Both the position numbers and the translations under genes were made by a program. The notes beneath the pieces are model-generated. The model was not told the origin of the DNA, searched no databases, and saw nothing but the letters and a program-made list of their open reading frames with translations. Source: Alphaproteobacteria bacterium (lineage in GTDB: Bacteria > Pseudomonadota > Alphaproteobacteria > Rickettsiales > SXRF01). From it: a stretch of 64,000 nt of DNA. Shown here one piece after another: positions 11,568 to 29,970 of this stretch (within the stretch, counting starts at the first letter, position 1; every line of letters starts with the position of its first letter). The stretch spans positions 2,857-66,856 of the forward strand of contig JANYBV010000047.1 of NCBI GenBank assembly GCA_025360605.1, written 5' to 3'.

Positions 11568-13286
11568 CTATGCAGTTTTTTTATTATCTTCAGATTTAAA
11601 ATTTGCGCGTTTTACAGGGATAAAACTAACGCATACGGAGTTATATTTGTGTAAGTTCGTCAGTTTCTCATGAGCAAGCTTTAACTCATATTTGGCCATC
11701 AAAGGTAAATCAATTTTTGTAGGTATCTTGGTGCTCTTATCGCAGTAGAGTAACCATAGTTTTACTTGATAATCACTGCCTTCCACGTCCTTTAGTTTTT
11801 CTTTGATGTGTTTAAGAAACTTGGCTTTTAAAGGATGTGTCGAATCACTGATGAAAGCGCGAATTTCTTTTAAAAAAGTTTCATCGGAAATGAAAGACTC
11901 ACAGTAAAATCTAGTCTGCGAAAAGAGATAATTTATCGAGCTTGTTCCACTAAGTTGCTTTACTTGAATAATTGATGCAGATCCCTCTCCAATTTCTAAA
12001 ATATCACAAAACTCTTTGTCTTTTTTCCCTTGCCCAACTCTTAATTTTGCCTGATCGAATACTAAGGCATTGGGATTAGAAGTAGCATACATTCGGTTGA
12101 AAACTGCTTCTTTGTTTTTCTTTTCGTCCATTACGGCAATATTAATATTATGATATTTTTTAGGAACCGGTTCTTCGATCAAAACGTTCTTGATATAATC
12201 CTCAATTGACTTGTAGAAATCGTTTTCTACTTTCTGCCAAACACCTTCTGACAGAATAAAATATTCTGAACTTAGTTTAATTTCCGCTATAATGCAGGTA
12301 TATAGAGGCCAGGATTTATGGTCGAGTACTTGCTCCTCAGCATGTGAATATGCATAAACGTCATTTGATTTTAGCTTTTTTATTTCTAATTCTGCCAAAT
12401 CAAAAATTTCGTCAAGATGCTCGACTCTAAGATGGGAGTGAATGGCATTATTCTTTTTAGCATAGTTGGTATAAGCGAAGCTGTATTCATCGTCCTCAAT
12501 AAAATCTGGAATAGCTAAATGAATTAGCTCAAAATTCTTTTTCTTAAGCTTCTTAAGAAGCAAAGAATCTAGCTCGTCTGCTTTTTCTTCCGTTACTGGC
12601 TGCAGATTAAAATAATTAGGGAATTCTTTTTTATAACGTTTTCCCTTATATTGTTTAATAAAATCCTCAGCGTAATCTAACACGTTGTCCCAAGATAACT
12701 TTTCTTCATCGTTTATCTTAATCGAAAGACTATCTTTTCCTTGCAGGGTTATATGACGGCGGTCCTCAACATGCGCTGAGATATATTTTAAGAATTCAGT
12801 TTCACTTAACCCAAAGCTTGATGAATCAGTGGGTATACTAATTTGACGATCAATTTGTTGAGTGTTTAGTGAATGTGTCCGGCTTTTAGTCTGCCGCAGC
12901 TCCTGGTTTCCACACATATTCATTGCTGTTTTAATTCCAAAATCTGGCAAAAACATTGTTTTATTTAATAGGCTGGCTCCACCAATACCAAAACATGCGG
13001 CCAGAATATTATTTCCAAGTTGGATAAGGAGCAATCCATTAGCTCGTTTGCTATGACCGCTAAATTGGATTGGCTGATCAGTCAGTTGTTCGTTTGCGAA
13101 ATCAAGCCAGGGGGGATTTGAGGTTCTCTTCTCAGTGGCAAAAAAATAGAATCTGACATTGGCATTTTTTACCTTAAAAGACCTCTCCTGATAATCTTTT
13201 AGCCGCGAATGACTTCTTAATGCTGTCTCAAAGGTGGTGCTGGGTCTGGCCAGAAAGAAAGAAATTGTACCCAATCCGATAGGCAT
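11568..13286 (-). CDS. TIGR04141/DUF6119-like sporadically distributed protein with a possible C-terminal PD-(D/E)xK-like motif
   Basis: 572-aa AT-rich ORF with a strong AGGAGA RBS. N-terminal pattern ...PPWLDF...ILAACFGIGG...DFGIK... and C-terminal ...EFCDILEI...SIIQVKQLSGTSSINYLFSQ. The family call is from memory. Confidence 0.5.
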   Translation of the reverse strand: MPIGLGTISFFLARPSTTFETALRSHSRLKDYQERSFKVKNANVRFYFFATEKRTSNPPWLDFANEQLTDQPIQFSGHSKRANGLLLIQLGNNILAACFGIGGASLLNKTMFLPDFGIKTAMNMCGNQELRQTKSRTHSLNTQQIDRQISIPTDSSSFGLSETEFLKYISAHVEDRRHITLQGKDSLSIKINDEEKLSWDNVLDYAEDFIKQYKGKRYKKEFPNYFNLQPVTEEKADELDSLLLKKLKKKNFELIHLAIPDFIEDDEYSFAYTNYAKKNNAIHSHLRVEHLDEIFDLAELEIKKLKSNDVYAYSHAEEQVLDHKSWPLYTCIIAEIKLSSEYFILSEGVWQKVENDFYKSIEDYIKNVLIEEPVPKKYHNINIAVMDEKKNKEAVFNRMYATSNPNALVFDQAKLRVGQGKKDKEFCDILEIGEGSASIIQVKQLSGTSSINYLFSQTRFYCESFISDETFLKEIRAFISDSTHPLKAKFLKHIKEKLKDVEGSDYQVKLWLLYCDKSTKIPTKIDLPLMAKYELKLAHEKLTNLHKYNSVCVSFIPVKRANFKSEDNKKTA

Positions 13287-13319: not shown

Positions 13320-13766
13320 TCAGTTTAGCTTTAATAATCTACACGCCAATTCTTTTGTCTGCCATTTTGTTGCAAAGGTATCAGAAACCTCGAACCATTT
13401 TCCGCTAGGATTTTGAGAGCCATGATGCTCTCCCAAACAAGAACACTCACATTCATGCCCACGGGCCTCCCAGCATGCTCGAGCGCATTTCTCTTGCTTT
13501 CTATGGGGTTGAATAATGTATAATTTTCCCCAGCGACGAAGGAGGCGGTTTACAAGGTCATTGAACCAACTGGCTGGTAATTCCCAATAATTTTTATTAC
13601 CAGGCAGCCACTTGGGTTTACGATGCTTTTGATTTCTAAGCCAATCATAATTACCATTCACATAAGGAAGACGAAGTAACAAAGGATAGCCTGGGCCACG
13701 CCTAAAGATCACCGGCACGGTTTTTTGTAGCCATATTCCCTCTATCTTTTCTCTATCGTCGAGCAT
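13320..13766 (-). CDS. hypothetical Cys/His-rich protein
   Basis: ~148-aa ORF (ATG 13766, or GTG 13772). It has the cluster KCARACWEARGHECECSCLGEHHG and lies 34 nt upstream of the 572-aa gene. Confidence 0.5.
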   Translation of the reverse strand: MLDDREKIEGIWLQKTVPVIFRRGPGYPLLLRLPYVNGNYDWLRNQKHRKPKWLPGNKNYWELPASWFNDLVNRLLRRWGKLYIIQPHRKQEKCARACWEARGHECECSCLGEHHGSQNPSGKWFEVSDTFATKWQTKELACRLLKLN

Positions 13767-13771
13767 TGTCA

Positions 13772-14446
13772 CTATCTAACCCTATCTTGCTTAAAACTAG
13801 GACAGTCATAGCTGGTGGGACAAAATCGCTTATAGGCCGCTATCCAGTCAGTAGCGATAGCCTTCTGTGCTTCTGCTATGTCTATGGCCTCGCTACAGAC
13901 AAGTGTATGGAGTTTGAGTTCCAACCGATCCTTCACAGAAGCATTCCAGGTATCTGTATCATACGATTCGGGCCACAGATTCTCTGCTACATCAGCACCG
14001 CCAATGCTAAGGGGGATAAGGTGATCGATTTCGTAATGCCCAGCCTTGCGATCAATGCCGTATTCTCGATAAATCCTGGCTTTTAGCTTACCTGAAGTGT
14101 GACGAACACTCTTTGAGTATCCAGGCTGGCATATCTCGCTTACATCTACTGACCTCACTGCGCCTGGCGTCATCTTGGGGTCAGGAAGTATGGGATCTCC
14201 AGCAAATGCCTGCTGTGTATCCACTGAAAGTACCAGAAAAATAACGGCACTAAAAAATAGGTGCTTACCAAGTCTGTACAATACCGCAGCGACAACGATA
14301 ATCAGGAGAATTCCGCCATTGATAGCGGTCCACAATTCACCAATTTTGGGGAAGAACACCCAGCCAAAATTAAGAAGCCCCAGGACAAGTAGTAAGACCA
14401 CCAGAAAATAATCTGACCCTGTGATTTTATTAATTAATTTGCGCAT
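13772..14446 (-). CDS. membrane-anchored HNH endonuclease-family protein
   Basis: Hydrophobic N-terminal segments, then ...ICQPGYSKSVRH...YEIDHLIPLSIGGADVAENLWPE...KDRLE.... Its ATG overlaps the upstream stop (TGATG). Confidence 0.7.
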   Translation of the reverse strand: MRKLINKITGSDYFLVVLLLVLGLLNFGWVFFPKIGELWTAINGGILLIIVVAAVLYRLGKHLFFSAVIFLVLSVDTQQAFAGDPILPDPKMTPGAVRSVDVSEICQPGYSKSVRHTSGKLKARIYREYGIDRKAGHYEIDHLIPLSIGGADVAENLWPESYDTDTWNASVKDRLELKLHTLVCSEAIDIAEAQKAIATDWIAAYKRFCPTSYDCPSFKQDRVR

Positions 14447-14643
14447 CAATTCAGCTTCCCTTGACTTTTGACACTGCGCAAATCTTCAATGGCACTCATA
14501 ATGGATAACCAAACCCCAGATCCTTTGACATCATCTTGTTCAATGAGCGCTAGCATCTGCTGAAAGGCGTAATCTTCTGCCTTGCCCCCATGCTGCTTAA
14601 TGAGCAATTGTGCGGATATAAATATATCTTTTTGACTAACCAT
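14446..14643 (-). CDS. small hypothetical protein (65 aa from ATG 14643)
   Basis: First ORF of the minus-strand cluster and translationally coupled to the HNH gene. No known motif. Confidence 0.4.
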   Translation of the reverse strand: MVSQKDIFISAQLLIKQHGGKAEDYAFQQMLALIEQDDVKGSGVWLSIMSAIEDLRSVKSQGKLN

Positions 14644-14753: not shown

Positions 14754-15689
14754 ATGCTCAAGGAACTCATCAATGATATTGCCGAGCATTACCTCGATGC
14801 AAAAACATCGAAAAATGAACGCGTAGCGAATTTATTAAAGAAGCAAGCCCCAGTTGAGTTGCAAAAACATCTGGCTTCAATTCAGCATGAGTTGTTGCCA
14901 AAGGGCAGCCACGGCAATGGGAACTGGTCGGCAGTGCCATGGTTTGCAGTTTTTGAGCCAACGGTTACTACGAGCGCACAGCGTGGCTATTATGTAGTCT
15001 ATCTATTCTCCGCCGATATGAAGCATCTGTACCTATCCATGAATCAGGGTGCCACGAAGGTACAGGAAGAGTTTGGAGCACAGGCTCATGAAATATTGCG
15101 GGCACGTGCCAGTATATTGAGAGCGCGGGCTCCTCAATTTAAGAAGAGCTTTTCAAGCGATCCTATTGATCTCGGCTCTAACAGAAACCTGCCTTCGGGT
15201 TATGAAGCCGGGCATACCTTCGGCAAAGAATATGCTTTACCTCTTCAGGTTAGCGAAGCTGAGTTGGCTCAGGATCTGCAGGCGATCGTTAAACTATACC
15301 TAGAGATCATTGGACGTGGTGGGCTCGAGCTTCCGGTAGAAGTTGAGGATAGCCAGAGCGATAATGATGATTGGACGAGCAGTGAAAAGCCACGCTATCG
15401 CCAACACCGGACTTTAGAACGCAATCGCAGTGCCAGTAAAAAAGCCAAACAATGCCATGGCACGGTCTGCCAGGGCTGCGGCTTTGATTTTAGCAAAAAA
15501 TATGGCGTTATTGGTGATGGCTATATCGAAGCCCATCATCTGACTCCGATTTCAGAGCTGCCAAAAGATTTAAAGACGGATCTGAATGTAAAAGAGCATT
15601 TTGCTGTGCTCTGCGCCAATTGTCATCGGATGATGCATCGGAAAAATGGGCCCAAAACGATCCGCGAACTGAAGGCAATCCTTCAATAA
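14754..15689 (+). CDS. DUF3578 (McrB-N-like DNA-binding) + HNH nuclease fusion; candidate Type IV (modification-dependent) restriction enzyme
   Basis: N-terminal GSHGNGNWSAVPWFAVF...GYYVVYLFSADMKHLYLSMNQG. The C-terminal HNH is CQGCGFDF...YIEAHHLTPISE...AVLCANCHRMMH. Confidence 0.7.
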   Translation: MLKELINDIAEHYLDAKTSKNERVANLLKKQAPVELQKHLASIQHELLPKGSHGNGNWSAVPWFAVFEPTVTTSAQRGYYVVYLFSADMKHLYLSMNQGATKVQEEFGAQAHEILRARASILRARAPQFKKSFSSDPIDLGSNRNLPSGYEAGHTFGKEYALPLQVSEAELAQDLQAIVKLYLEIIGRGGLELPVEVEDSQSDNDDWTSSEKPRYRQHRTLERNRSASKKAKQCHGTVCQGCGFDFSKKYGVIGDGYIEAHHLTPISELPKDLKTDLNVKEHFAVLCANCHRMMHRKNGPKTIRELKAILQ

Positions 15690-15703
15690 TAGAGAGAACG
15701 CAT

Positions 15704-17098
15704 ATGAAATACATATTCTACGATACCGAAACCACCGGTCTTGAGGTGGCATATGATCAGATATTGCAGTTTGCGGCTCTTGAGGTGGATGAGGACCTAA
15801 ACGAAATTAATTCCATCAATATTCGCTGCCGGATCCTGCCTTATATAGTTCCGTCACCGGGTGCGTTGCTGGTAACTGGCGTCTCCCCAAAGGATCTTGT
15901 GGCGCCTAACTATTCTCATCGGGATATGGCCGGTGAGATACGTGATTGGATCATCCGATGCTCGCCCTGTATGTTGGTGGGCCATAATAGCATTAAGTTT
16001 GACGAAACATTCTTGCGGCATGCGTTTTATAGAACGCTCCACCCGCTTTATCTCACGAATACGAATGGCAATAATCGTGCGGATACTATGCGCATGGCCC
16101 AAGCAGCTGCGATTTTTGCGCCAGGCAGCATCACGGTACCCTTATCCGAAAAAGGGAATCCATCCTTTCGACTTGGCAACCTAGCACGTGCCAACGGCAT
16201 TGATTTCAAGGAAGAGGATGCACATGATGCGCTGGCAGACGTGCGGGCAACCCTAGAGCTGGCAAAACTTTTACGCAGACGTGCCCCTGAAATCTGGGAG
16301 CAGATGCTCAATAACTCCACTAAGAAGACGGCATTGACATTCATGCGCAGTAATCCTGCATTTTGTTTAGCAGAGGTCAACTATGGCAAGGCGTCTACCT
16401 ATTTGGTATCCGCGATAACTAACAATCCCAATTATGACGCTGAGATGGCTGTCTTCGACCTGCGTTATAATCCCAATGATTACTTGAACTGTTCGGTTGA
16501 GGAGCTTGTGGCCGTAATGAAGGGCAAAGAAAAGGCCATACGGATAGTACCCGCCAATAGTCAGCCCATCATAGTAAATACCGCGATTGGCCATGCTATC
16601 CTTGAGGAAAACGGTACGGATCCAGAAGTGTTACGTCAGCATATCGAGCTGATTCAAGCTGCAAAAGAGTTCAGGCAACGGGTAGCAACAGCGCTCACTA
16701 TGCGATATGAGGATGAAGAAACATCACCGCATGTTGAGAAAGCAATATATCAAGGTTTTCCGTCACGGGCTGACGAATCAATCATGATGTCCTTTCATAA
16801 AGCGCCGGCAGAGGAAAAGAGCGCCTTGTGTCATAAATTACAGGATACTCGCTATAGAGAAATGGCCCTGAGGTTGATATATGCCGACCACCTGGATCAT
16901 ATGGACCCTGTCGATAGACACAGAATAGAAAAAGATTTTCAGGATCGTCTGCTGACAGAAGAGAAGATGCCATGGCTTACGATACCTGCTGCCTTTAAAG
17001 AACTTAAAGAGCTGAGAGAGCAGGGGGATAAATTAGAACTGCTAGCAGAAATCGAAGTTTTTATTGAAGGAATGCGGCAGCGTTTTACAGCCATCTGA
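15704..17098 (+). CDS. sbcB: exodeoxyribonuclease I (SbcB-like DEDDh 3'-5' ssDNA exonuclease)
   Basis: Motifs FYDTETTG..., ...GHNSIKFDE..., ...PSFRLGNLARANGI...AHDALADV..., with full-length collinearity to E. coli ExoI as I recall it. ATG 15704 is preceded by AGAGAGA. Confidence 0.85.
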   Translation: MKYIFYDTETTGLEVAYDQILQFAALEVDEDLNEINSINIRCRILPYIVPSPGALLVTGVSPKDLVAPNYSHRDMAGEIRDWIIRCSPCMLVGHNSIKFDETFLRHAFYRTLHPLYLTNTNGNNRADTMRMAQAAAIFAPGSITVPLSEKGNPSFRLGNLARANGIDFKEEDAHDALADVRATLELAKLLRRRAPEIWEQMLNNSTKKTALTFMRSNPAFCLAEVNYGKASTYLVSAITNNPNYDAEMAVFDLRYNPNDYLNCSVEELVAVMKGKEKAIRIVPANSQPIIVNTAIGHAILEENGTDPEVLRQHIELIQAAKEFRQRVATALTMRYEDEETSPHVEKAIYQGFPSRADESIMMSFHKAPAEEKSALCHKLQDTRYREMALRLIYADHLDHMDPVDRHRIEKDFQDRLLTEEKMPWLTIPAAFKELKELREQGDKLELLAEIEVFIEGMRQRFTAI

Positions 17099-17307: not shown

Positions 17308-20300
17308 ATGAGTTTTAATCGTGTATTAGAAAAATACAGAAAAATTTCCCATTCCGAGCGCGATAAAGGCGACCGTTTTGAACGCCTTATGCAAGCCTAT
17401 CTCCTGACCGACCCTAAATATGCTTATAAATTTAAGAAGGTATGGTTATGGAGTGAATTTCACGGCAAAGGAGATTTAGGCGGCAGTGATACGGGCATTG
17501 ATTTGGTTGCCCGTACTCTCGATGGCGACTATTGGGCAATCCAGTGCAAGTGCTTTGCTGAAAACGCAGTCATTGATAAGCCTGCTGTTGACAGCTTCCT
17601 GTCTACATCCAGTCGTGAGTTCAAAAACGAGGAACTGAAAACAGCCCGTTTCAGCCATCGCCTGTGGATTTCCACCACGAACAAGTGGGGAACAAACGCT
17701 ACCGAAGCCATTAAAAACCAGAACCCACCCGTCACGCGTATTAACCTCTATGATTTGCAGGAAGCGCCTGTTGACTGGGAAAAGCTGGATAAAGGCATAC
17801 ATGGGGAAGCATCTCGTACCCCGAAGAAAACCCTGCGACAACACCAGAAAGATGCCCTTGATAAAACGCATGAGCATTTTAAGACCGCCGAGCGCGGCAA
17901 ACTCATCATGGCCTGTGGCACGGGCAAAACCTTTAACTCCCTGCGTATTGCCGAGAATGAAACGAATGGCAAAGGCACGATACTATTTTTAGTGCCATCC
18001 ATCGCCTTGCTGGGGCAAACCCTACGGGAATGATCATCCGATGCCAATGAGCCTATCAATGCCATTTGCATCTGCTCCGACCCTGAGATTTCCCGCAAAA
18101 AGACCAAAAACGAGGATAGCGATAATTTCAGCGTTGTGGATTTGGCTTTGCCCGCTTCCACCGATGCAAAAGATATTCTCCACCAGTTCACACACATCAA
18201 AACCAAAGGCCACAAAGGGATGACGGTAGTATTTTCTACCTATCAATCCATTGAGGTGATTGCCAAAGCTCAGAAGGAACTGCTGAAAAATGGCTTTGGC
18301 GAGTTTGACCTGATTATCTGCGACGAAGCCCACCGCACCACAGGCGTTTCACTGGCAGGTGAGGATGAATCAGCTTTTACCAAAGTGCATGATAGCGGGT
18401 TTATCAAAGCCAAAAAACGCCTCTACATGACGGCAACGCCCCGCCTTTATAATGATGACACCAAAAGCAAGGCTGCGCAGGCCGATGCTACGTTATGCTC
18501 AATGGATGACACTAAGCTGTACGGGGAAGAAATTTACCGCATTGGCTTTGGCGAGGCGGTGGAAAAAGGGTTGCTCACTGATTACAAAGTGTTGATTCTT
18601 ACCCTGAGCGATAAAGACGTTCCCCCCGCAGTTCAAAAGATGGTTGCGGATAAGGAAAGCGAAATTAATGCCGATGATGCCTCAAAACTTATTGGCTGCA
18701 TCAATGCGCTTTCAAAGCAGGTGTTGGGAGATGAAGGCATTATCAAAGCCACTGACCCCGAACCCATGCGTCGCGCCGTGGCTTTCTGCCAGAGCATTGC
18801 CGTTTCTAAAAAAATTACTGCTACCTATAACACCGCAACCGATGCCTATATCAGTTCATTGCCGCCTGAGAAAAAAGGAGAGATGGTTTCCGTGGCCTCC
18901 AAACATATTGACGGCACAATGTCGGCTCCTGAGCGTGATGAGCTGCTGGGCTGGCTGAAAGCGGATATGGATAGCGGCGAGTGCCGCGTCCTTACCAACG
19001 TGCGCTGCCTGAGCGAAGGCGTGGATGTGCCATCGCTCGACGCAGTGATGTTCCTTTCCGCCCGTAACTCGCAGGTGGACGTAGTGCAGTCCGTTGGCCG
19101 CGTCATGCGTAAAGCCCCTGGCAAGAAATATGGCTATATCATCATCCCCGTGGTTGTTCCATCCGAGGTAGAGGCTAGCAAAGCCCTTGATGACAATGAA
19201 CGCTATAAAGTGGTGTGGACTGTATTGAACGCTCTCAGAGCGCATGATGACCGCTTTAACGCTACCGTGAATAAAATTGAACTCAACCGCACCAGGCCAG
19301 AACAGATACTGGTGGGCAGGCCAGAAATTTCCTTTGAAAATGGCCAGCCTGTCTATGGTGACCCAGATCGATTAAATAATACCAATAAGGACATCAGCCG
19401 CCAGATGGCGCTGCAATTTGAGCAGTTACAGAATGTGGTGTTTGCACGAATGGTGCAAAAAGTTGGCGACCGCCGCTATTGGGAGCAATGGGCAAATAGC
19501 GTGGCCGAAATTGCCACACGGCAAATCGAGCGCATCAATCGCCTCATTGCCGAGGACAAGATTCATCAAAAAGCCTTCGCTAATTTCTTGGGCGGGCTGC
19601 AAAAGAATATCAACCCAAGCATTACCCAGTATGAAGCGGTGGAAATGCTTTCGCAGCACATCATCACCAAGCCCGTGTTCGAGGCATTGTTTGAGGGCTA
19701 TTCCTTCGTAAAAAACAATCCTATTTCCGTATCCATGCAAACAATGCTGGATTTGCTGGAAGATCAGGCATTCGATAAAGATGCAGAAACTCTGCAAAAA
19801 TTCTACGAATCCGTAAAAATGCGGGCCTCAGGCATTGATAATGCCGAGGGCAAACAGCGCATCATCATCGAGTTATATAATAAATTCTTCAAAACCGCCT
19901 TCCCAAAAATGGTGGAAAAGCTGGGTATTGTTTATACACCCGTAGAGGTGGTGGATTTCATTATCCATTCCGTCAGTGATGTGCTGCAAAAAGAATTTGG
20001 CCGCAAGCTGGCTGATGAGAATGTCCACATTCTCGACCCCTTCACAGGCACAGGCACTTTTATTACCCGCTTGATACAAAGCGATCTGATTGGCAAAAAG
20101 GATTTACTCCGCAAATACCAGCATGAAATCCATGCCAATGAAATTGTGCTGCTGGCTTATTACATTGCCGCTGTGAACATCGAAAATGCCTACCATGACG
20201 TGGTGGAGGGTAAGGATTATGAGCCGTTCGATGGCATCTGTCTAACAGATACCTTCCAGCTTGGCGAAAGCGATGAAAGCGAGAAGCTGTTTTCCGAAAT

Positions 20301-22158
20301 GTTCCCGCAAAACTCCAAACGGGTGCAGGCGCAAAAGAAAGCCCCGCTGCGGGTGATTATGGGCAACCCGCCTTATTCGGTGGGGCAGCAATCTGCCAAT
20401 GACAATGCTCAAAACCAAGAATATGAGAAATTGGATAGCAGGATTGCAAAAACCTATGCCACTGGGAGTAAGGCCACATCAGTAAAAGCCCTGTATGATT
20501 CATACATAAAGGCTTTCAGGTGGAGTGCCGACCGTTTAGACCCTAAACATGGCGGCATTGTCTGCTTTGTGTCCAACGGAAGTTGGTTGGAAGTAAATGG
20601 GATGGACGGATTCCGTAAATCGCTAGAAAATGAATTCTCTGCTATTTATGTTTTCAATTTGCGTGGCAATGCCAGAACACAGGGCGAACCACGAAGGAAG
20701 GAAGCAGGCAACGTATTTGGCGGCGGCTCACGTACCACGATTGCCATTACATTGTTGGTAAAAAATACTGAGCAGAAGAACAAGAAAGCCCTCATCCATT
20801 ACCATGATATTGGTGACTATTTAGATAGGGAAGAAAAGCTCGCTATCATTCAACAATTCGCCACCGTCCAAAATAAACAGATGTCATGGGAAACCCTTAC
20901 CCCTAATGAGCATGGCGACTGGATTAGCCAAAGAAACGATATTTTTGAAACATATACTCCAATAGAGCCAGATAAAAAATTTGATTTGAAATCTAAGGCA
21001 TATTTTGTCGTTAATTCGCTTGGTATAAACTCTAATAGAGATTCTTGGGTTTATAGTTCCTCGTCACAAGAACTTCAAAAAAACATGGCACGAACTATTG
21101 ATACTTATAATAAACAAGTAGATGGTTATCAAAAAGCGATTCGGGAAAATAAGAAACTTAAAGTTGAAGATTTTATTGACACCGACCCCAAGAAAATAAG
21201 TTGGTCTAGTAGTTTACTCCCCAATGTAGAAAGGGGGAATAAAACTCAGTTTGAATCAGATAAAATTAGATTAGCCCATTATCGTCCTTTTTTCCTACAA
21301 CGCCTTTATAATGGTGATAAATTTATTCATCGCAGGGGACAATTTCAGGAATTTTTCCCGACTGCTAATTCCAAAAATCTTCTTATTGGCGTATCAGCCT
21401 CATCTAAGGGCTTATCAGTATTAATTTCAGATAAAATACCTGACCTTCATTTCAACGGTGATACCCAATGCTTCCCTCTCTACTATTACGAAAAGAACGA
21501 AAAGCAGAATAAAAGCCTGTTTGATGAGGGTGACGGTGAATATGTCCGCCGTGACGGCGTGAGTAATTTTATCCTTGAACGTGCCAAAGCGATGTATGGC
21601 AAGACTGTCAGCAAAGAAGATATTTTCTATTATGTGTATGGCTTCCTGCACAGCCCTGAATACCGTGAAACCTTTGCCAATGACTTCAAGAAAATGCTCC
21701 CGCGTTTACCGCTGGTGGAAGATGTGAGGGATTTTTGGAAATTCAGCAAAGCAGGCAGGGCATTAACCGAGTTGCACCTGGGCTATGAAACCGTCCAAGC
21801 CTACGATGGCGTGAAGGTCACGGGCGCGGATAGTAATTTTTTCACGGTCGAAAAAATGCGCTTCCCCAAAAAAAACCAGAAAGATACCATCCACTTCAAT
21901 AGTAAAATCATCATTTCTGGCATCCCCGCCAAAGCCTATGACTATGTGGTAAACGGCAAAAGTGCTATCGAATGGATTATGGAACGCTATGCCATCACTA
22001 CCCACAAGGAAAGCGGCATCACTAATAATCCTAATGACTGGGCTGAGGAAGCTGGCAAGCCTCGTTATATTCTTGACCTATTACTCAGCATAATCAATGT
22101 GAGCATTCAGACAGTTAATATTGTAGAAACCTTGCCAAAAGTATCATTTGTAAGCTGA
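17308..22158 (+). pseudogene. Type ISP restriction-modification enzyme (Mrr-like nuclease + SF2 DEAH helicase + N6-adenine MTase + TRD) interrupted by one in-frame TGA at 18031-18033
   Basis: ORFs 17308..18033 and 18136..22158 are in the same frame, and 18034-18135 has no stop. Motifs are GIDLVA...AIQCK (nuclease), ACGTGKT and ICDEAHRTTG (helicase), IMGNPPYSVGQ (MTase) and the conserved C-terminal YVYGFLHSPEYRETF. Confidence 0.8.
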
Positions 22159-22172
22159 GTATGCCTATTCGA

Positions 22173-22214
22173 CTGGACTTCTGCCCAATAGCAAGCATTG
22201 CTGGGGATACGGGC
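22173..22214. repeat. left copy of an imperfect direct repeat (17-nt perfect core CAATAGCAAGCATTGCT at 22186-22202)
   Basis: 34/42 identical to 27165-27206 by hand alignment. Weaker collinear similarity extends over about 22164-22262. Confidence 0.7.
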
Positions 22215-22276
22215 TTGCTTCCGAGCTCGTAGTCAACGCCCGGACCTGATTCTGGGCTTAATGGCTCGGATTTTAT

Positions 22277-22981
22277 TTATTTAGGCCATTCTTTATATTT
22301 TCTAGGGAATAAATTGATTCCATCTTGTCGCCTTAACTCTATAAATGGCTTTAGTTTGGCAGACGAGTTTAAGCGATATTTCTCGGATGTTCTCAAGAAC
22401 CAGGTGTAAATATCTGCTAACTGTAAAAATCTACTTAGATGAGAATGTGTGAAGTGTACTGACTCAAAAATATGGTCCAATTTTTGCCCATACTGAAACT
22501 GTGTACCGGCTATTCTATAGTCCGAAAGGGCTAATGAAAAACGTTCGGATACACCGTCGTTTTCCCTGTCGCCTATAAGCATTCCCAAAGAGTGATTCAC
22601 CTTAATATGTTGGTTGGCGCGTTCACATAAATACATGAAAGCAATTTTTGCACTATCTTGGGTAAGGGCGAGCTTATCTGTATTTATTTGAATATCTATG
22701 AGATCAATATTTTCTTGAGACAAGATTTTTAGAAATTTGGTAAAAATCTCAAGGCGATTCTCGTCAGTTACATTACGAAAATTATCCTGCTTGTTATATA
22801 TATTATTGGCATGAAATTCTGAGGCCCTACTGAGTTTCACGACACCGAATATTTCTTCAGAAATCTGATTGATGGACTCTTCTATTTCTCTCAGATGCTC
22901 CTTATCTATACACACGGCCCCAATATGATATCGAGGGAAATCTCTTTGTGGTTTAGATTCATCGAAGAAAATTAATTTCAT
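22277..22981 (-). CDS. DUF3800-family protein
   Basis: 234-aa AT-rich ORF. N-terminus MKLIFFDESK and C-terminal HLSRFLQLADIYTW match my recollection of DUF3800 hallmarks. Confidence 0.6.
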   Translation of the reverse strand: MKLIFFDESKPQRDFPRYHIGAVCIDKEHLREIEESINQISEEIFGVVKLSRASEFHANNIYNKQDNFRNVTDENRLEIFTKFLKILSQENIDLIDIQINTDKLALTQDSAKIAFMYLCERANQHIKVNHSLGMLIGDRENDGVSERFSLALSDYRIAGTQFQYGQKLDHIFESVHFTHSHLSRFLQLADIYTWFLRTSEKYRLNSSAKLKPFIELRRQDGINLFPRKYKEWPK

Positions 22982-23061
22982 GATTACACATAAATAGGAA
23001 ATTTAAATTTCATGCTTTGGATGATCGTCGTGCCGGAAGCAATCCTGGCCAGAGAATCAGA

Positions 23062-26000
23062 TCAAGGTTTTTCGAACAGGACACCTAATACAGGCCAAAT
23101 CCCAGCCACGCTCGCCTTTGCTCCAGGGCTTGTGGCAAGCAACACCGGTTGAAAATCGCCTCCAATTTCTAGACTTTCAAGGATTATGAATCCATCTAAG
23201 CCTGCTCTCAGGCGCTTGAAATATCTGGCGCCATTTGAATCTTCAGCAATAACAGGAGATCCTTCTAGCTTGGCCAGTGCATCTGTGAGTGCAATCTGCT
23301 GGGCAATTATCAGGTATTGGCCATTAAGTGCATGTGGTTCTGCGCTCTCACCTTGGACTTTTACCAATCCCTGTATGCCAGAGAAAGCTGACTTCACATT
23401 TGCTTCTCCCCCACAATCCACAAATTCATGCTCAGAGGATTGAGCCGCCCCATAGCCAGAACCATATAAAACACCGACTATTTTATGCATAGATAATGTG
23501 GATAGCTTTGCGACAACTGGCGGCGCAATCTTCCGAGGATTAATCGCATTTGCCGTCAATACAGCAACATCTGAATGATTTTCAGCAATCTCAAGTCGCC
23601 GAGCGAGAAGCCGGTCATCGCTAAGAGCTACAACAAGCGATTTTGCAGTTGGAGCCTGATGCTCGCGAACTAATAACAAATCGCCAGGCCGTGCGACCGG
23701 TTCCAAGGTTGGCGTTGTTAAGCAAAACGCAAAGTGGTCCTTTAACTCAACCGTTTCTATGGCCGCCCCATTAATACTTAATTCAACACACCCATCAGCT
23801 GCACGCCCATCGCTTAAGGCTGCCGCGGAACCGACTATGGGCAGTTTGAGGGTTCTAACAAAGTCTTTATGCCCTTCTGGCAGACTTACCGTCGGATGAA
23901 GGGCATGAAGAGCTGTTAATCCGCCATGTAAAGCTTTATGTTCCCGGGCAATGCGAAATGCTCGTTCGAGCGCGGGCCTGAGCTTTTTTGTCCAATATTT
24001 TTGTACGTCTGTTGCTTCCGACATACCTAAGGCAGCAACCGTTGCATGGTGTGCGGACTCAATGAATTTAATCTCAGGAACAGCTTTGCCGAGCACGTTA
24101 GCTAACGTATCAAAAGCATTGCGATTCCAAGGTTCATGCTTAGCAATGTGTAGTTGTTTTAATCTTTCACGACAGTCACCAATTACTGAGGTTTGAATGT
24201 CGATATCCTCTCCTCTGAGCATCAATCGAAGCATACCTTCAACAAATACTCTCATTGCCGCCATATAATCTTGAGCAGCCGTAGGGGTTTTTTCTTTTGT
24301 GACGCGCTCCCATCGCCGGTTAAGCTCATCTCCTTCAAATATTCCTAAATGACCCAATTCGGTACCAGCTGATGCAATCAATATACGCCGTCCGGAAACA
24401 CCATCTATTTCTAAAAAAGAAAGAAATTGTTCATCATGTGTACTGAGAACGACCTGAACAGCCGTAATTGACTTTTGCAGCTTGGCAATTTGCTCAGCCC
24501 ATCTATGCCTGTGTATGTTGTCAAAAGTCTGTTGAGGGTCATCGAGCAGCATAAGGGGTAATTGGTCGTTGCCCATTTGCTCTACGGCCTCTTCACGAAG
24601 TGCGAATATGAATGCCCATAGAACACCGCGAATCCATGAAGTGTTGGCTACAAGTGTAGCATCCACGCAAATTTCATCGGACATCGCACCATGAATTATT
24701 AATCCAGCTTTTTTTTCCAGAGTCGCTTTTTGAAATTGTACTGCATCAGAAAGATACGTCTCACCATGAATTTTTCCTATTCGACCAGAAAGATCACTAA
24801 GCGCATCCCGTGTCTGTGCTTCCGCAAAATTACCTAGATTCTTTAGTGGAGAAAGCGCGTCTGCAATTTCTTGTCTTTGTACAATTTCCTTTTCTATAAC
24901 GCGTGCTCTTAAGCCCTGTGCCCAAGCTAGTCTCATTGCTGCAGCCCCTAATCTATAAGGCTCTGCTTCACCCATTGCTTTCCCAACACGTTCAATATAT
25001 GTGCTCAATGTCTCAGGGGCAGTTTGAGGAATTGTTCCATCTGGTAATGGATCTACACAGGTCAATTCTTTCCACCATTCAGTCCAAGCAACTTTTTCCC
25101 CTTCAAACCACAACGCTAATGCAATGAGTTGTTCTAGTTTTTGTATGCGGCCATAAACCGCACTTGTTCCGGGAGCTGTTTCCAGCTCAATTATAACTGC
25201 TTGAACTTCGGCAGTTGGCGCGGATTTACAGGCCGCTTCCACTAGCGTTCCAAATTTAGCGAGCGTTTTTGAATATATGTCGGCCGTAACTAACTTCTTT
25301 TTAATATCTGCAACCAATGCAGACTGTACCGAAGACGGAATTGGTTCAGTCAAATAACGTTTTAGTGGCTGAGGAAGTGCTGCTTCTAACAACCCTAGAA
25401 TCTCTTGAATATTATCAGAAAGTTTCTTTGTTGCAGACTCGCCGGCATTCTGAAGAGCCATTAACTGTGCTTGTAGAATTGGGTTGTCAGATAATGAGTG
25501 CTGACATGTTGGACACTCGCCGATTGCACCAGAGCCATGGTTAGCGTGCCATTGAGCAGCTAACGCTTTTAATTGAAAGCGAGTGTCTGTTTGAGCCTCT
25601 TGGTGGTAGCCGACCGCAATTTCTAACGCAGCTTTAGCATCGCTAATAGATTGGGTTACAGAGAGGCGAGTTAAAACATCTAAATTCGCTGCAATAGTCT
25701 CAGCGAAGGCCCATGATGAGAAGCTATTTAGGCCATTTTTAATGTCTTTATCTGCGTCGGCGAGTGCTAGCACGATTTGCCGTTGTATTTGAGCATTGGT
25801 AAGATCTAAACCTGTCGCGAGATCATCGGATACAACCTTCGTTAAATCGGCGGTTTTTTCGCTTAATGACTTACCAAGTGCAGCGAAAGATCCACCAGCA
25901 TCGTCCGTATCGCTTGGTTTGAAATTTGATATAGTGATGTTAACCGGAGCTAGTGCAGTACGGGCTACTTCTACTTGTGCATCGAATTCCCGTTTTGCCG

Positions 26001-26880
26001 TATCGAGCTCTGTGTTTTTGTAAGAGAGATAGTCGCGGCTTTTGTGACACAAGTCTTGAATAAAGGTGCCGAGTTCTATTAATTCATCTAGACCAGTTAA
26101 TGCTTGTACTGCATCCGTGAGTTGATCTTTGCTCGCTCCATCAAAACGAATTTTGGGCAGGCGCGCAGGCATCAGAAGCCCGGTTTCTATTAGAACCGGA
26201 GGCAGCTGAAGTGCGGGGTCAATAATAATGCTGTTGTTTTTGCCTTTAAGAGTTCGCGTTATAGATGCGAGTTTACCTACCGGGTTTGAGAAGATAACTT
26301 CAACTCGAACATCAGGCCCCGCGACTATGTCCGCTACAGTTTTGGGATAAGTAGCGACAGGAGGCCACTCGCCAATTTTTTGAACTAAGGCGTTCAGTAC
26401 TGGTTTAACCTCGTCAGCGGCCGCATCACTTTGATCTCTAGGACGTTCACCCGTTAACGCCCATACAATGGCCGCTGTTAGCGATGATTTACCACTGCCG
26501 TTTGGACCGTCTAAGAGTAAACTCTCCTGATTAAGCTCTAAAGTGAACTCTGGCCCTTTCCATGCATTTATACCACCGAATCCCTGAGCCTTTACAGCGT
26601 GTATCTTCCAAGGGCCTTCAAGAATTGTGCAGGTCGCCGCCGCAGCTATTTCCGTGGCCGGGTCGCCCGCCTCAATAAAAGCGTCAGCCAATCCTTTGGT
26701 AAAGACATCTGACAGTCCTTTTACCTCTCTAATATTAGAAGTTAGCAGATAAGCTAAAAGGCGACGCTGTTTCGCATCCGCTAAAGCCATGGAGTTGGAT
26801 TTGCCGTTTCCATCCTTCCAACCAAGAGCTTTGCCTTTAAGAAGGTCAGCCTTTATTTCTGTCTTTGTTAGCCGCGCCAT
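23062..26880 (-). CDS. Rad50/SMC-like ABC ATPase with CxxC hook-like motif and tandem C-terminal LexA/S24-like domains
   Basis: 1272-aa ORF. Walker A is LLLDGPNGSGKSS (~26491-26520), Walker B is LPLMLLDDP (~24536-24562), and the H-loop is LSTHD. A long insert between them carries GECPTCQH (25504-25518). Confidence 0.7.
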   Translation of the reverse strand: MARLTKTEIKADLLKGKALGWKDGNGKSNSMALADAKQRRLLAYLLTSNIREVKGLSDVFTKGLADAFIEAGDPATEIAAAATCTILEGPWKIHAVKAQGFGGINAWKGPEFTLELNQESLLLDGPNGSGKSSLTAAIVWALTGERPRDQSDAAADEVKPVLNALVQKIGEWPPVATYPKTVADIVAGPDVRVEVIFSNPVGKLASITRTLKGKNNSIIIDPALQLPPVLIETGLLMPARLPKIRFDGASKDQLTDAVQALTGLDELIELGTFIQDLCHKSRDYLSYKNTELDTAKREFDAQVEVARTALAPVNITISNFKPSDTDDAGGSFAALGKSLSEKTADLTKVVSDDLATGLDLTNAQIQRQIVLALADADKDIKNGLNSFSSWAFAETIAANLDVLTRLSVTQSISDAKAALEIAVGYHQEAQTDTRFQLKALAAQWHANHGSGAIGECPTCQHSLSDNPILQAQLMALQNAGESATKKLSDNIQEILGLLEAALPQPLKRYLTEPIPSSVQSALVADIKKKLVTADIYSKTLAKFGTLVEAACKSAPTAEVQAVIIELETAPGTSAVYGRIQKLEQLIALALWFEGEKVAWTEWWKELTCVDPLPDGTIPQTAPETLSTYIERVGKAMGEAEPYRLGAAAMRLAWAQGLRARVIEKEIVQRQEIADALSPLKNLGNFAEAQTRDALSDLSGRIGKIHGETYLSDAVQFQKATLEKKAGLIIHGAMSDEICVDATLVANTSWIRGVLWAFIFALREEAVEQMGNDQLPLMLLDDPQQTFDNIHRHRWAEQIAKLQKSITAVQVVLSTHDEQFLSFLEIDGVSGRRILIASAGTELGHLGIFEGDELNRRWERVTKEKTPTAAQDYMAAMRVFVEGMLRLMLRGEDIDIQTSVIGDCRERLKQLHIAKHEPWNRNAFDTLANVLGKAVPEIKFIESAHHATVAALGMSEATDVQKYWTKKLRPALERAFRIAREHKALHGGLTALHALHPTVSLPEGHKDFVRTLKLPIVGSAAALSDGRAADGCVELSINGAAIETVELKDHFAFCLTTPTLEPVARPGDLLLVREHQAPTAKSLVVALSDDRLLARRLEIAENHSDVAVLTANAINPRKIAPPVVAKLSTLSMHKIVGVLYGSGYGAAQSSEHEFVDCGGEANVKSAFSGIQGLVKVQGESAEPHALNGQYLIIAQQIALTDALAKLEGSPVIAEDSNGARYFKRLRAGLDGFIILESLEIGGDFQPVLLATSPGAKASVAGIWPVLGVLFEKP
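23065..23850 (-). other. tandem LexA/S24-like modules at the C-terminus of the 1272-aa ATPase
   Basis: Module 1 reads LPIVGSAAAL...CLTTPTLEP...PGDLLLV...LLARRL (Ser->Thr, Lys->Arg). Module 2 reads VQGESAEP...GQYLII...RYFKRL (Ser and Lys kept). Both were aligned by eye to the E. coli LexA CTD (GMSM...VKRL). Confidence 0.55.
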
Positions 26881-27164
26881 TTTGTTTTTTTATTCTCTTA
26901 TTTACGGATAATGATTTCTAACTAGATTCAAGCCCTACTTTAAGTGGTATTGCCAAGAAGTTTATACAACCTTATTTGGGGGGTGTAAATATATACTCCT
27001 AGGACAAATACATAACATTTTCGTAGCTGTATTGGCCGCGAGAAGACTGCAAATATCTTGCGAGTTACTGTGGGATTCCTGTCAGATTCCTGCGTAAAAA
27101 TTGATCGACGAATTCAAACCGTTGCTGGCCGGACTTTAGTGAAATACCCTATGAGCTCATTCCG

Positions 27165-27206
27165 CTGGACTTGCCTTCAATAGCAAGCATTGCTAGCGAT
27201 ATGGGC
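27165..27206. repeat. right copy of the imperfect direct repeat (core CAATAGCAAGCATTGCT at 27178-27194)
   Basis: See the left copy. It lies about 95 nt upstream of the DUF3489 gene start. Confidence 0.7.
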
Positions 27207-27299
27207 ACTCCTTGCTCATACACTATACCCGGCCATGCACGGGCTTGTGTCAGTACAGGCGCCGGAATGGTTCCGGTGTCGTATGTACAGGAGACGAAT

Positions 27300-27623
27300 A
27301 TGCCAAAATCCAAGAAAAAGATTGCTGCGAGCGATAAATCGCAGCCCATCCATAAGCCAAAGAAGAAAAAAAAGCATTCTTCCAATCCCATCATTAATGC
27401 CACCGCTGATGAGCGCACTTCCAAACAGGCAACGCTGATCGCGCTGTTGGAGCATCCCAACGGTGCCACCATCGGTGATCTGGCCTCCCGCCTAGGCTGG
27501 CAACGTCACAGCGTGCATGGGGTAATGTCGGGTGTGCTAAGGAAAAAATTAGCTCTCACCATCACCTCCAATGCCGAGGAGCGTGGACGTGTGTACCGCA
27601 TCACTAGGACGAGCCGTATATGA
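27300..27623 (+). CDS. DUF3489-like protein with Lys-rich N-terminus
   Basis: ATG 27300 follows an AGGAGA RBS. The core reads SKQATLIALLEHPNGATIGDLASRLGWQRHSVHGVMSG...GRVYRI. Confidence 0.6.
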   Translation: MPKSKKKIAASDKSQPIHKPKKKKKHSSNPIINATADERTSKQATLIALLEHPNGATIGDLASRLGWQRHSVHGVMSGVLRKKLALTITSNAEERGRVYRITRTSRI

Positions 27624-28072
27624 AACGTCGTGTGGATGGGGGAGGGCTTGCCAGTGAACTGGCAGGCCTTCCCAACCTTGACCGGGCAGCGCTGGTAGCA
27701 CGGTGGCATAATCTCTATGGTACTGAACCACCGCACCGTATCAGCCAACAGCTGCTCGTGCAGGCGATTGCTTACCGGTTGCAGGAGCAGGAAATGGGTG
27801 GGCTTAAACCCTCCATCCGTCGGTTCCTGGCGAAGGCGGAAGAAGATGTAAGTAACAGGCAGCAGATATCTGCGCCACCGCCCGTAATCAAACCCGGCAC
27901 CCGATTGCTGCGCGAGTGGCATGGCATCACGCATGAGGTGACGGTGATGGAAGATGGCGTCATGTTCAATGGGAATAAATACAAATCATTATCGGAGGTG
28001 GCACACCTCATCACCGGTGCCAAATGGTCCGGCCCGCTGTTCTTCGGCTTGCGAAAGAAGGAGGCGGCATGA
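27620..28072 (+). CDS. DUF2924-like protein
   Basis: Motifs ...LVARWHNLYGTEPP...LLVQAIAYRLQE...LLREWHG...SLSEVAHLITGAKWSGPLFFGL. It overlaps both neighbours by 4 nt. Confidence 0.65.
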   Translation: MKRRVDGGGLASELAGLPNLDRAALVARWHNLYGTEPPHRISQQLLVQAIAYRLQEQEMGGLKPSIRRFLAKAEEDVSNRQQISAPPPVIKPGTRLLREWHGITHEVTVMEDGVMFNGNKYKSLSEVAHLITGAKWSGPLFFGLRKKEAA

Positions 28073-29745
28073 GCAACCCTCCTCTCAAGCGCTGCGCTAT
28101 CTACACCCGTAAATCCCATGAGGAGGGGTTGGAACAGGAGTTCAACTCCCTCGATGCGCAGCGCGAAGCCAGCGCCGCCTACATCGCTAGCCAGAAACAT
28201 GAGGGCTGGCAAATAATCAAAACGAACTATAATGACGGTGGGTTCAGCGGCGGCAATGTCAACCGTCCGGCGCTGCAGCAATTGCTTGCCGATATTGAAG
28301 CCGGGAAGATTGATGTCATCGTGGTGTATAAGGTGGACCGCCTGTCACGCTCGCTGCATGATTTTGCGAAGATGGTCGAGGTCTTTGATAAATACAATGT
28401 GTCCTTCGTCTCAGTTACCCAGCAGTTCAATACCACCACTTCCATGGGGCGGCTGACGCTGAATGTGTTATTATCGTTCGCCCAGTTCGAACGTGAGGTC
28501 ACGGGGGAGCGCATCCGCGATAAGATCGCTGCCTCGAAGAAAAAAGGCATATGGATGGGCGGACCAGTACCGCTGGGGTATGATGCTGCGGATCGAAAGC
28601 TCATCATAAATCCGAAGGAAGCAGAGACTGTCAGATATATGTTTCAGCGGTATCTGGAGCTTGGCTGTGTCAGGCTTCTGGCGGAAGAGCTTGAGCATAA
28701 GGGCATTCAGTCCAAGGCTAGATTCCACAAAGATGGTTCCCCATGCACGCGTCGATCATTCGCGCGTGGCCACGTTTATGTCTTGCTGTCGAATCCGATT
28801 TATATCGGCCAGATTCGTCATAAGGATGCATGCTACCCTGGGCTGCATGAGCCGATTATCAATGCAGAATTGTGGGAGCAAGTGCAGCAGCTCATGAGGG
28901 GCAATGCGGTAAATGGTAAATCCCATTCCAGAAAAACGACACCTAGCATCCTTACCGGCAAGCTTTTTGACGCCTCTGGCGATCGCTTGATCACAAGCCA
29001 TGCAGTCAAAAAAGGTAAGCGCTATCGCTACTATGTATCTCAGAGCCTTAAAACTGGAACTGCCGAACAGAACAGGCATGGATGGCGGTTGCCTGCGCAT
29101 GAGATCGAACAACTAGTCATGCAATCAGCCAAAACCATGTTGTCAGATCACTCAGCGATTGCCTCTGCATATCAAGGTGCTGATATTGAAAATCATGAGC
29201 TTCCACACCTGCTGAAAGCAGCGGAGAAAACTAGCCAGCGGATCAGCAGTGATACAGAGATATTTTTAAAGTTCATCAAACATGTCGAACTACGGCGCGG
29301 CTCTTTATCGCTTACGCTTGCGCTGAATGCCTTGCTACCAAAGGACTCCATATCTTCTCCTATCACGATCACCCACGAACTCCCGATGCATATGAAACGA
29401 TGCGGCGTGGAGATGAGAATGGTAATAGAGGTAAATGGAAGCCCGGCACCACGAATAGATGACTCGCTCATTAAAGCAATCGCACGGGCGCATCGATGGT
29501 TCGGTGAACTGGCATCGGGAAAGACGGGATCCATCAGTGCCATTGCCATACGCGAGAACATCGATAAAGGCTATGTGAGCCATCTACTTAATCTGGCCTT
29601 TCTTGCACCGGATATTACTGAGGCGATTATCGCCGGAAGACAGCCGGCGGATCTATCGGTAAACGGGCTGACTAAGCGGATACAATTACCTGTCGAATGG
29701 GTGCAGCAGCGACGTACTCTTAGCTTTGCACAGCCCCAACGTTGA
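28069..29745 (+). CDS. large serine recombinase
   Basis: Motifs RCAIYTRKSHEEG...SLDAQRE (catalytic Ser region), VVVYKVDRLSRSL, and FAQFEREVTGERIRDK, plus a large C-terminal domain. Confidence 0.85.
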   Translation: MSNPPLKRCAIYTRKSHEEGLEQEFNSLDAQREASAAYIASQKHEGWQIIKTNYNDGGFSGGNVNRPALQQLLADIEAGKIDVIVVYKVDRLSRSLHDFAKMVEVFDKYNVSFVSVTQQFNTTTSMGRLTLNVLLSFAQFEREVTGERIRDKIAASKKKGIWMGGPVPLGYDAADRKLIINPKEAETVRYMFQRYLELGCVRLLAEELEHKGIQSKARFHKDGSPCTRRSFARGHVYVLLSNPIYIGQIRHKDACYPGLHEPIINAELWEQVQQLMRGNAVNGKSHSRKTTPSILTGKLFDASGDRLITSHAVKKGKRYRYYVSQSLKTGTAEQNRHGWRLPAHEIEQLVMQSAKTMLSDHSAIASAYQGADIENHELPHLLKAAEKTSQRISSDTEIFLKFIKHVELRRGSLSLTLALNALLPKDSISSPITITHELPMHMKRCGVEMRMVIEVNGSPAPRIDDSLIKAIARAHRWFGELASGKTGSISAIAIRENIDKGYVSHLLNLAFLAPDITEAIIAGRQPADLSVNGLTKRIQLPVEWVQQRRTLSFAQPQR

Positions 29746-29894: not shown

Positions 29895-29970
29895 TGGTGG
29901 AGAATAGGAGAGTCGAACTCCTGACCTCTACAATGCCATCGTAGCGCTCTACCAGCTGAGCTAATTCCCC
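29895..29970 (-). tRNA. tRNA-Ala (anticodon GGC), CCA encoded
   Basis: Hand-folded 76-nt cloverleaf: GGGGAAT/ATTCTCC acceptor with the G3:U70 Ala identity pair, anticodon loop AUGGCAU, and T-loop TTCGACT. Confidence 0.9.

Follow-up and report, generated by a model that had tools for sequence, protein, structure and literature searches.

What could a Rad50-like ATPase do with a pair of LexA-type domains at its C terminus, and does it work together with the small gene that follows it? The question is raised by a gene for a 1272-amino-acid protein, called here the ATPase-S24 protein, in a 64,000-nucleotide stretch of a Rickettsiales genome (assembly GCA_025360605.1, contig JANYBV010000047.1, positions 2,857 to 66,856), referred to as the window. 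The original prediction, made from the sequence alone, joined this gene to a DUF3800 gene lying 80 bp downstream into a candidate defence system. Both open reading frames (ORFs) were confirmed at the expected positions on the same strand, and every motif that had been quoted was found: GPNGSGKS (residues 125-132), GECPTCQH (454-461), LMLLDD (776-781) and STHD (813-816) in the ATPase part; LPIVGSAAAL (1013-1022) with TPTLEP and LLARRL in the first S24 domain (D1); and GESAEP with YFKRL in the second (D2). The tentatively preferred answer is that the protein may be an RloC-like conflict protein that would sense DNA and act without partners, its output gated by trans-cleavage within the S24 tandem. 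A DNA-end sensor controlled by LexA/UmuD-style cleavage, as first proposed, is plausible and agrees with what is conserved in the family. The partnership with DUF3800 did not hold.

Conservation is given below as counts out of 61 sequences, namely the window protein and 60 full-length representatives with pairwise identity of at most 50%. The features of the locus are:

23062..26880, minus strand: ATPase-S24 gene, an ORF whose translation is a single chain of 1272 amino acids.
26611..26880, minus strand: N-terminal extension, residues 1-90, conserved in the homologue alignment and without a Pfam match.
26482..26508, minus strand: Walker A GPNGSGKSS, residues 125-133, matched by Pfam AAA_23 and SMC_N; K131 in 61/61.
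25504..25515, minus strand: CPTC, residues 456-459, putative zinc hook at the apex of the helical insert; C456 and C459 in 61/61.
24634..24648, minus strand: ANTSW, residues 745-749, at the ABC signature position.
24520..24555, minus strand: Walker B LMLLDD and D-loop TFD, residues 776-787; D780 and D787 in 61/61.
24433-24444, minus strand: H-loop STHD, residues 813-816, with His815.
23881..24333, minus strand: helical domain, residues ~850-1000, candidate effector or regulatory domain; R877, E881 and H945 in 61/61.
23788..23844, minus strand: LexA-like cleavage-site strand and loop LPIVGSAAALSDGRAADGC, residues 1013-1031; A1021 in 61/61.
23461..23853, minus strand: D1, degenerate, its dyad positions being T1058 and R1094 (Pfam, hhalign).
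23065..23433, minus strand: D2, with an intact Ser1179/Lys1222 dyad; S1179, P1182 and K1222 in 61/61.
22982..23061, minus strand: intergenic spacer of 80 bp, in which no terminator-like site was found on the minus strand.
22277..22981, minus strand: DUF3800 gene, 234 amino acids, Pfam PF12686 (E 5.6e-14), of an RNase H-like fold family.

A Rad50-type head joined to two LexA-type domains

The ATPase-S24 protein consists of an N-terminal extension, a split head of the ABC/SMC class, a helical domain and a tandem of S24 domains, in this order. The C-terminal tandem, which had been aligned by eye to two copies of the LexA C-terminal domain, proved to be S24-like by profile searches, structure modelling and comparison of its two halves. 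In the window protein, Pfam Peptidase_S24 gave a weak match to D1 (residues 1048-1117, E 1.9e-4, below the gathering score); when the halves were scanned singly, the model (PF00717) matched D1 in five of five homologues and D2 in four of five, of which two exceeded the gathering score, with up to 26.8 bits. The AlphaFold2 (AF2) model of residues 976-1272 contains two beta-rich domains (mean predicted local distance difference test score, pLDDT, 73; predicted template modelling score 0.75). Its best ~30 Foldseek matches in the PDB are all C-terminal domains of LexA, lambda CI or 186 CI, with target TM-scores of up to 0.69, and include LexA-RecA complexes among the best. Alignment of D1 to D2 with hhalign reached 97.5% probability (E 6e-12), pairing T1058-L-E-P with S1179-A-E-P and A-R1094-R-L with F-K1222-R-L. 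A PDB sequence search with the tandem returned nothing useful, and hhalign against an E. coli LexA sequence was insignificant, although LLARRL was nonetheless paired with VTVKRL.

Conservation divides the two domains as had been proposed. D2 retains the dyad motifs GxSAEP and FKRL, its S1179, P1182 and K1222 being invariant, while the dyad positions of D1 are occupied by Thr1058 in 39/61 and Arg1094 in 54/61, next to an invariant R1095. Ahead of D1 runs an LPxxGxAA strand like that of LexA and UmuD, in which A1021 is invariant and residue 1020 is Ala or Ser in all 61 sequences; A1021 lies 37 residues before T1058, the D1 nucleophile position, and the distance from cleavage site to nucleophile is 35 residues in LexA and 36 in UmuD. 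D2 has no LexA-like cleavage-site strand at the canonical distance. The loop at residues 1021-1031 is conserved, yet it was modelled by AF2 with a pLDDT below 50. Complete invariance of the D2 dyad and of A1021 across clusters of at most 50% identity argues for catalysis under purifying selection. The pattern is that expected of a pseudo-dimer with a substrate loop on D1 and an active site on D2, from which cleavage may be inferred. Both domains share the fold of LexA, UmuD and CI, and their arrangement recalls the LexA/UmuD dimer, in which UmuD can be cut in trans. Unlike in those proteins, the two S24 domains stand in one chain, the loop resembling a substrate and the intact active site are found on separate domains, no helix-turn-helix is present and the module is fused to a 1000-residue ATPase.

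The head is divided by an insert of ~500 residues that is mostly helical and bears an invariant CPxC at its middle, as in proteins of the Rad50/RloC type; a crude scan for heptad periodicity and for Pro and Gly found low Pro/Gly content in residues 337-448. Pfam placed AAA_23 and SMC_N at the N-terminal P-loop. The NCBIfam Rad50, RecF and SbcC models all matched far below threshold, positions 283-469 of the 888 in the Rad50 model corresponding to residues 256-471 and thus reaching the CPTC. Within the PDB, a sequence search with the ATPase part gave nothing useful, and a whole-family profile found Rad50/SMC matches at the P-loop level only. The split head, its Walker A and B motifs and the mid-insert CxxC are borne out by motifs and by the 61-sequence alignment, in which K131, C456, C459, D780 and D787 are invariant in head and insert. 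ANTSW is unchanged across 24 close homologues, and its N746 and S748 occur in 60/61 and 57/61 representatives, respectively.

This head invites comparison with Rad50/SbcC and with LmuB of Lamassu, which likewise have an ABC head, long helical arms and an apical CxxC, and whose profiles match weakly. The differences are ANTSW, the Walker B, the variable H-loop, the extra C-terminal domains and the lack of Mre11/SbcD or LmuA/LmuC partners. Neighbours were searched in 65 non-redundant homologue loci with 361 flanking ORFs. No Mre11/SbcD partner is present in the window, and the Metallophos proteins in 8 of the 65 loci come with an SbcC-like ATPase of their own; LmuA and LmuC are adjacent neither in the window nor in any of the homologue loci. 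A Lamassu variant, made of an LmuB-type SMC protein with fused domains and an LmuA-like effector encoded elsewhere, could draw on the PADLOC LmuB model PDLC03859, which matches residues 370-824 (E 8e-15), as other LmuB models do too. The same model, however, matches unrelated SbcC-like neighbour proteins as strongly (5.5e-16), so that the match is generic for Rad50-class ATPases. Since the protein is also twice the LmuB model length with additional domains, and the DUF3800 protein matches no LmuA model, such a variant is extremely improbable. The generic LmuB match and the lack of LmuA and LmuC speak against a Lamassu identity of the ATPase-S24 protein.

The expectation that PADLOC would return nothing was right in that no system was called, though generic ATPase matches did appear. 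As anticipated, no named system with this architecture was found in PADLOC, Pfam, NCBIfam or the literature searched, nor did that literature contain a description of an SMC/ABC ATPase fused to S24.

The family itself is large, widespread, unnamed, carried on mobile elements and deeply conserved. A word-indexed search retrieved 322 homologues, and the best 120 of these are nearly all full length (1260-1290 amino acids, 46-72% identity), many with a precomputed PF00717 match. When 1.84 billion cluster representatives were searched exhaustively with a profile, 950 matched at E<=1e-3, of which 305 reached E<=1e-30; full-length members of 1240-1360 amino acids, covering query positions 1-1183, extend down to ~190 bits. 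The architecture of the whole protein is kept down to ~22% identity, the S24 tandem being conserved in the 61-sequence alignment as had been asked of collected homologues, and is ancient. Plasmid-borne relatives of 22-44% identity in Rhizobium, Sphingomonas, Croceicoccus and Mesorhizobium retain the hook, the R-x3-E...HH motif described below and both S24 domains. Hosts include rhizobia, sphingomonads, acidobacteria and others, and the loci, read qualitatively, are integrative and conjugative elements (ICEs), conjugative plasmids, and integrative, phage-like or defence-rich islands. Annotations of relatives go no further than 'AAA family ATPase', 'ATP-binding protein' or 'hypothetical protein'. 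Megablast found no match in E. coli genomes, and a scan of genome contigs with the full alignment was swamped by the P-loop pattern, yielding only two distant full-length relatives.

A proposed proteolytic switch and a candidate effector

In the preferred reading, the zinc-hook ATPase would sense DNA in the form of ends, damage or foreign replication intermediates, and the S24 pseudo-dimer would be a one-shot proteolytic switch. Upon a conformational or RecA-filament cue, the intact active site of D2 would cut the AA-loop ahead of D1; this would be an intrachain trans-cleavage, comparable to that between UmuD protomers. The part of the protein upstream of the cut would thereby be released or unlocked, and there the helical domain with its invariant Arg, Glu and His might act as the effector by analogy with the anticodon-nuclease triad of RloC and PrrC.

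This helical domain, modelled by AF2 as a helical bundle (pLDDT 75), carries the family motif R877-x3-E881-x62-67-[A/S]-H944-H945, in which R877, E881 and H945 are invariant. It gave no significant match by Foldseek, PDB sequence search or Pfam, Foldseek returning generic helical bundles only. In nine diverse head-plus-helical segments, Pfam and PADLOC detected no HEPN, anticodon-nuclease or AHH domain. The triad of RloC has the form Arg-X3-Glu-X36-52-His, with the His often preceded by Ser (PMC2610378). The resemblance of the family motif to the RloC/PrrC triad is a lead, not a demonstrated homology, and it makes the helical domain the foremost effector candidate within the ATPase-S24 protein.

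RloC, and not Lamassu, is the closest known architecture. RloC and the ATPase-S24 protein are both single chains with an ABC head split by a coiled-coil insert bearing a CxxC of the zinc-hook type and followed by a C-terminal functional domain, and both place an invariant R-x3-E...His motif straight after the head. RloC is usually encoded by a solitary gene, sometimes mobile and near anti-restriction genes, and the ATPase-S24 gene is solitary too. The ATPase-S24 family differs in its ~90-residue N-terminal extension, in its ~260-residue tandem S24 module, which RloC lacks, and in a post-head domain without detectable homology to the anticodon-nuclease domain of RloC.

A more specific version of the effector step would make the protein an RloC-type anticodon nuclease with an S24 latch, its diverged helical domain cutting tRNA once the latch is removed. 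The domain does sit at the position of the RloC/PrrC nuclease, its three invariant residues keep the R-x3-E spacing with a small residue or His before the final His, the zinc hook is as in RloC, and the PADLOC PrrC model was the best, albeit weak, match to the C-lobe of the head in four of nine diverse representatives (E 4e-7). That alignment, however, covers model positions 149-225 of 372 and so ends before the nuclease region; Pfam AAA_13 and HEPN did not match, Foldseek returned no HEPN fold, and the Glu-to-His spacing of 62-67 is longer than the 31-52 of PrrC/RloC. This version is unlikely. Doubtful in similar measure is the fully specified form of the preferred reading, a widespread immune sensor that would join two ways of sensing DNA damage not known to occur together, namely a Rad50/RloC-type zinc-hook ATPase and a LexA/UmuD autoproteolytic switch in the form of an intramolecular pseudo-dimer whose dead domain offers the substrate loop and whose live domain the active site, so that self-cutting on a DNA-end or RecA-filament signal unleashes an RloC-like RNase or another toxic activity.

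The neighbouring DUF3800 gene

The identification of the small ORF as DUF3800 stands, and its D7/E8 and Q187xxD190 motifs are invariant among homologues. Type VII retrons and some Cas12 loci contain DUF3800 as a domain of effector type, and its fold is reported to be RNase H-like. The window protein shares the PF12686 domain and the DE and QxxD motifs with its counterparts in type VII retrons and Cas12a2 loci, but here it lacks an adjacent reverse transcriptase, Cas12 or TPR partner; its gene is flanked by a Type ISP restriction-modification gene and the ATPase gene. A two-gene system, in which the ATPase-S24 protein senses and DUF3800 executes as an RNase H-like nuclease, would fit this precedent and the arrangement of the genes, which share a strand and are separated by 80 bp in which no terminator is predicted. 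In 21900-27300, scans for promoters and terminators stayed at background level, and no LexA box (CTGT-N8-ACAG) was seen by eye upstream of the ATPase-S24 gene. The difference in base composition that had been remarked on is present in overall GC content (0.46 for the ATPase gene and 0.36 for the DUF3800 gene) but nearly vanishes at third codon positions (0.357 and 0.349, as against 0.50-0.64 in neighbouring genes); the overall gap thus reflects amino-acid content and not necessarily a different origin. The matching third-position values are one point for a shared history, with no functional link shown.

The partnership failed in comparative genomics. Among the 65 ATPase loci, tblastn and a hidden Markov model built from 80 DUF3800 homologues and run on the flanking ORFs found DUF3800 in none except L005, which is the window's own sequence in an independent assembly; the locus of the closest ATPase relative (L017, 72% identity) lacks the gene. 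Conversely, six independent loci of DUF3800 homologues with 50-54% identity (L075, L077, L081, L082, L085 and L086) contain no ATPase homologue, and the neighbours there are TIR proteins, a Tn7-like TniABQ module, YoeB/Phd, and HEPN_AbiV with an integrase and MobA. Each gene is thus found alone elsewhere. As a conserved unit the two-gene system is largely refuted and, as an explanation of this locus, very improbable; the DUF3800 gene is an unrelated, independent, solitary mobile gene and not a partner, and it is unlikely to supply the effector of the ATPase-S24 protein. The 235-residue subfamily to which it belongs (434 matches, ~50% identity) is always solitary and is often found at the margin of mobile or defence cargo. 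This subfamily is absent from IMG/VR viral contigs. Rfam gave no match at E<=5 in 21800-23400, and its DUF3800-associated RNA motifs were detected neither in the window nor in two of the DUF3800 loci.

Genomic setting and the weighing of the readings

The ATPase-S24 gene lies in a low-GC island of ~19 kb (~11-29.8 kb; 45% GC, compared with 52% elsewhere) that is bounded on one side by a tRNA-Ala gene at 29895-29970 on the minus strand. At the same side, a DUF3489-DUF2924-large serine recombinase operon (27300-29745, plus strand) is divergent from the ATPase-S24 gene. A search for a direct repeat of the 3' end of tRNA-Ala, which would mark the far border, found none. A homologue on a Sphingomonas plasmid (L080) is likewise divergent from a serine recombinase. 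The window context is that of a restriction and defence island, whose other genes include:

11568-13286, minus strand: DUF6119 protein (E 1e-101), with a very low third-position GC content of 0.33.
13320-14449: two small ORFs without a Pfam match.
14754-17098, plus strand: McrB-N/HNH protein, then an overlapping ExoI-like exonuclease.
17308-22158, plus strand: Type ISP restriction-modification gene with Mrr_cat_2 nuclease, helicase, methylase and specificity domains.

The Type ISP gene is split by a single in-frame TGA at 18031-18033 (…TLRE*SSDANEP… in translation), and the same split is present in L005. Because both parts lie in one frame, the enzyme has probably been inactivated by a nonsense mutation.

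Across the 65 loci, all-against-all clustering of flanking ORFs revealed no conserved neighbour of the ATPase family, and 100 different families came out of a Pfam scan of 108 flanking ORFs. The sole recurrent neighbour is an SbcCD-like pair, consisting of a Metallophos protein and an SbcC-like AAA_23/AAA_27 ATPase, which occurs within 7 kb in 8 of the 65 loci, immediately adjacent in five, and also on a Croceicoccus plasmid. The loci with the pair are L007 (6073-9855), L008 (4909-9778), L012 (4246-9069), L041 (11246-15189), L031 (13634-17895), L010 (1-3779), L026, L045 and L084 (7925-10703). PADLOC assigns the pair to no system. It could be functionally linked to the ATPase-S24 protein or could be co-resident island cargo. 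Proteins with SEC-C domains were found near the ATPase-S24 gene in three otherwise unrelated loci (L080, 12396-14528; L083, 1973-3403; and L006/L007, as UPF0149 with SEC-C). Several loci have neighbours of the conjugative type, namely relaxases, ParB, DUF736, an ArdC-like zincin and YAcAr.

These neighbours bring in a different explanation, that the ATPase-S24 protein is carried by mobile elements for DNA repair, establishment or SOS modulation and not for immunity. The substrates of the ATPase would be DNA ends or incoming single strands, frequently in the company of the SbcCD-like nuclease pair; like LexA and UmuD, the S24 tandem would bind to RecA filaments, sensing or damping the SOS response or regulating the element. 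The occurrence of the pair and of ICE- or plasmid-type neighbours is consistent with such a role, as are the absence of the S24 tandem from IMG/VR viral contigs and the status of S24 domains as known RecA-filament clients, for which the LexA-RecA complexes among the best Foldseek matches can be cited. Yet the pair is missing from most loci and from the window, and its variable position and orientation, together with the three subfamilies to which its SbcC-like ATPases belong, look like island co-residence. The restriction and defence island around the window gene also speaks against this explanation, and the invariant Ser/Lys dyad points to proteolysis over mere docking. On balance, a repair or SOS factor is somewhat unlikely.

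The reading as an S24-gated conflict protein draws on the RloC precedent, the mobile and defence contexts, the lack of a conserved partner and the conserved flexible loop. Several observations weigh against it. In the head, the Walker B of the family is hhhhDD, with Asp at residue 781 and no catalytic Glu, and the ABC signature is degenerate. The H-loop STHD that had been pointed out is present here, but its His815 is shared by just 36/61 sequences, the remainder (~40%) having Asn, Tyr or Phe. The ATPase therefore looks catalytically weakened; judged by its motifs, with Walker A and D-loop invariant and the H-loop His variable, the head surely binds nucleotide, while its hydrolysis of ATP may be slow or regulated. 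The residue after A1021 is Leu, Phe, Ala, Lys or Arg and never the conserved Gly of LexA, UmuD and CI, so self-cleavage may not occur there. Some family members lack the S24 tandem (P0055, 1014 amino acids; P0310, 1039; and P0320, 1092), which suggests that it is dispensable for some function; P0055, from Bradyrhizobium oligotrophicum S58, ends a few residues past the LPEG linker, just before the tandem. Natural variants, split genes and pseudogenes are candidate explanations for these shorter proteins. In the helical domain, neither profile nor fold searches detected a likeness to HEPN or anticodon nucleases, and the Glu-to-His spacing falls outside the RloC range. Finally, several of the genomic contexts resemble the leading or cargo regions of conjugative elements, which would equally fit an anti-defence or establishment role.

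The SMC-based immune systems Lamassu, Wadjet and RloC are activated by conformational change or oligomerisation, and LexA-type self-cleavage is the classic irreversible switch in the response to DNA damage, known to us only from repressors and UmuD. With the false two-gene ATPase-DUF3800 system struck from the list of candidates, what stands is a family of more than 300 clusters at 50% identity that joins both logics in one chain with a fully conserved Ser/Lys dyad. It is a concrete candidate either for a new activation principle or for a mobile-element factor targeted to RecA filaments.

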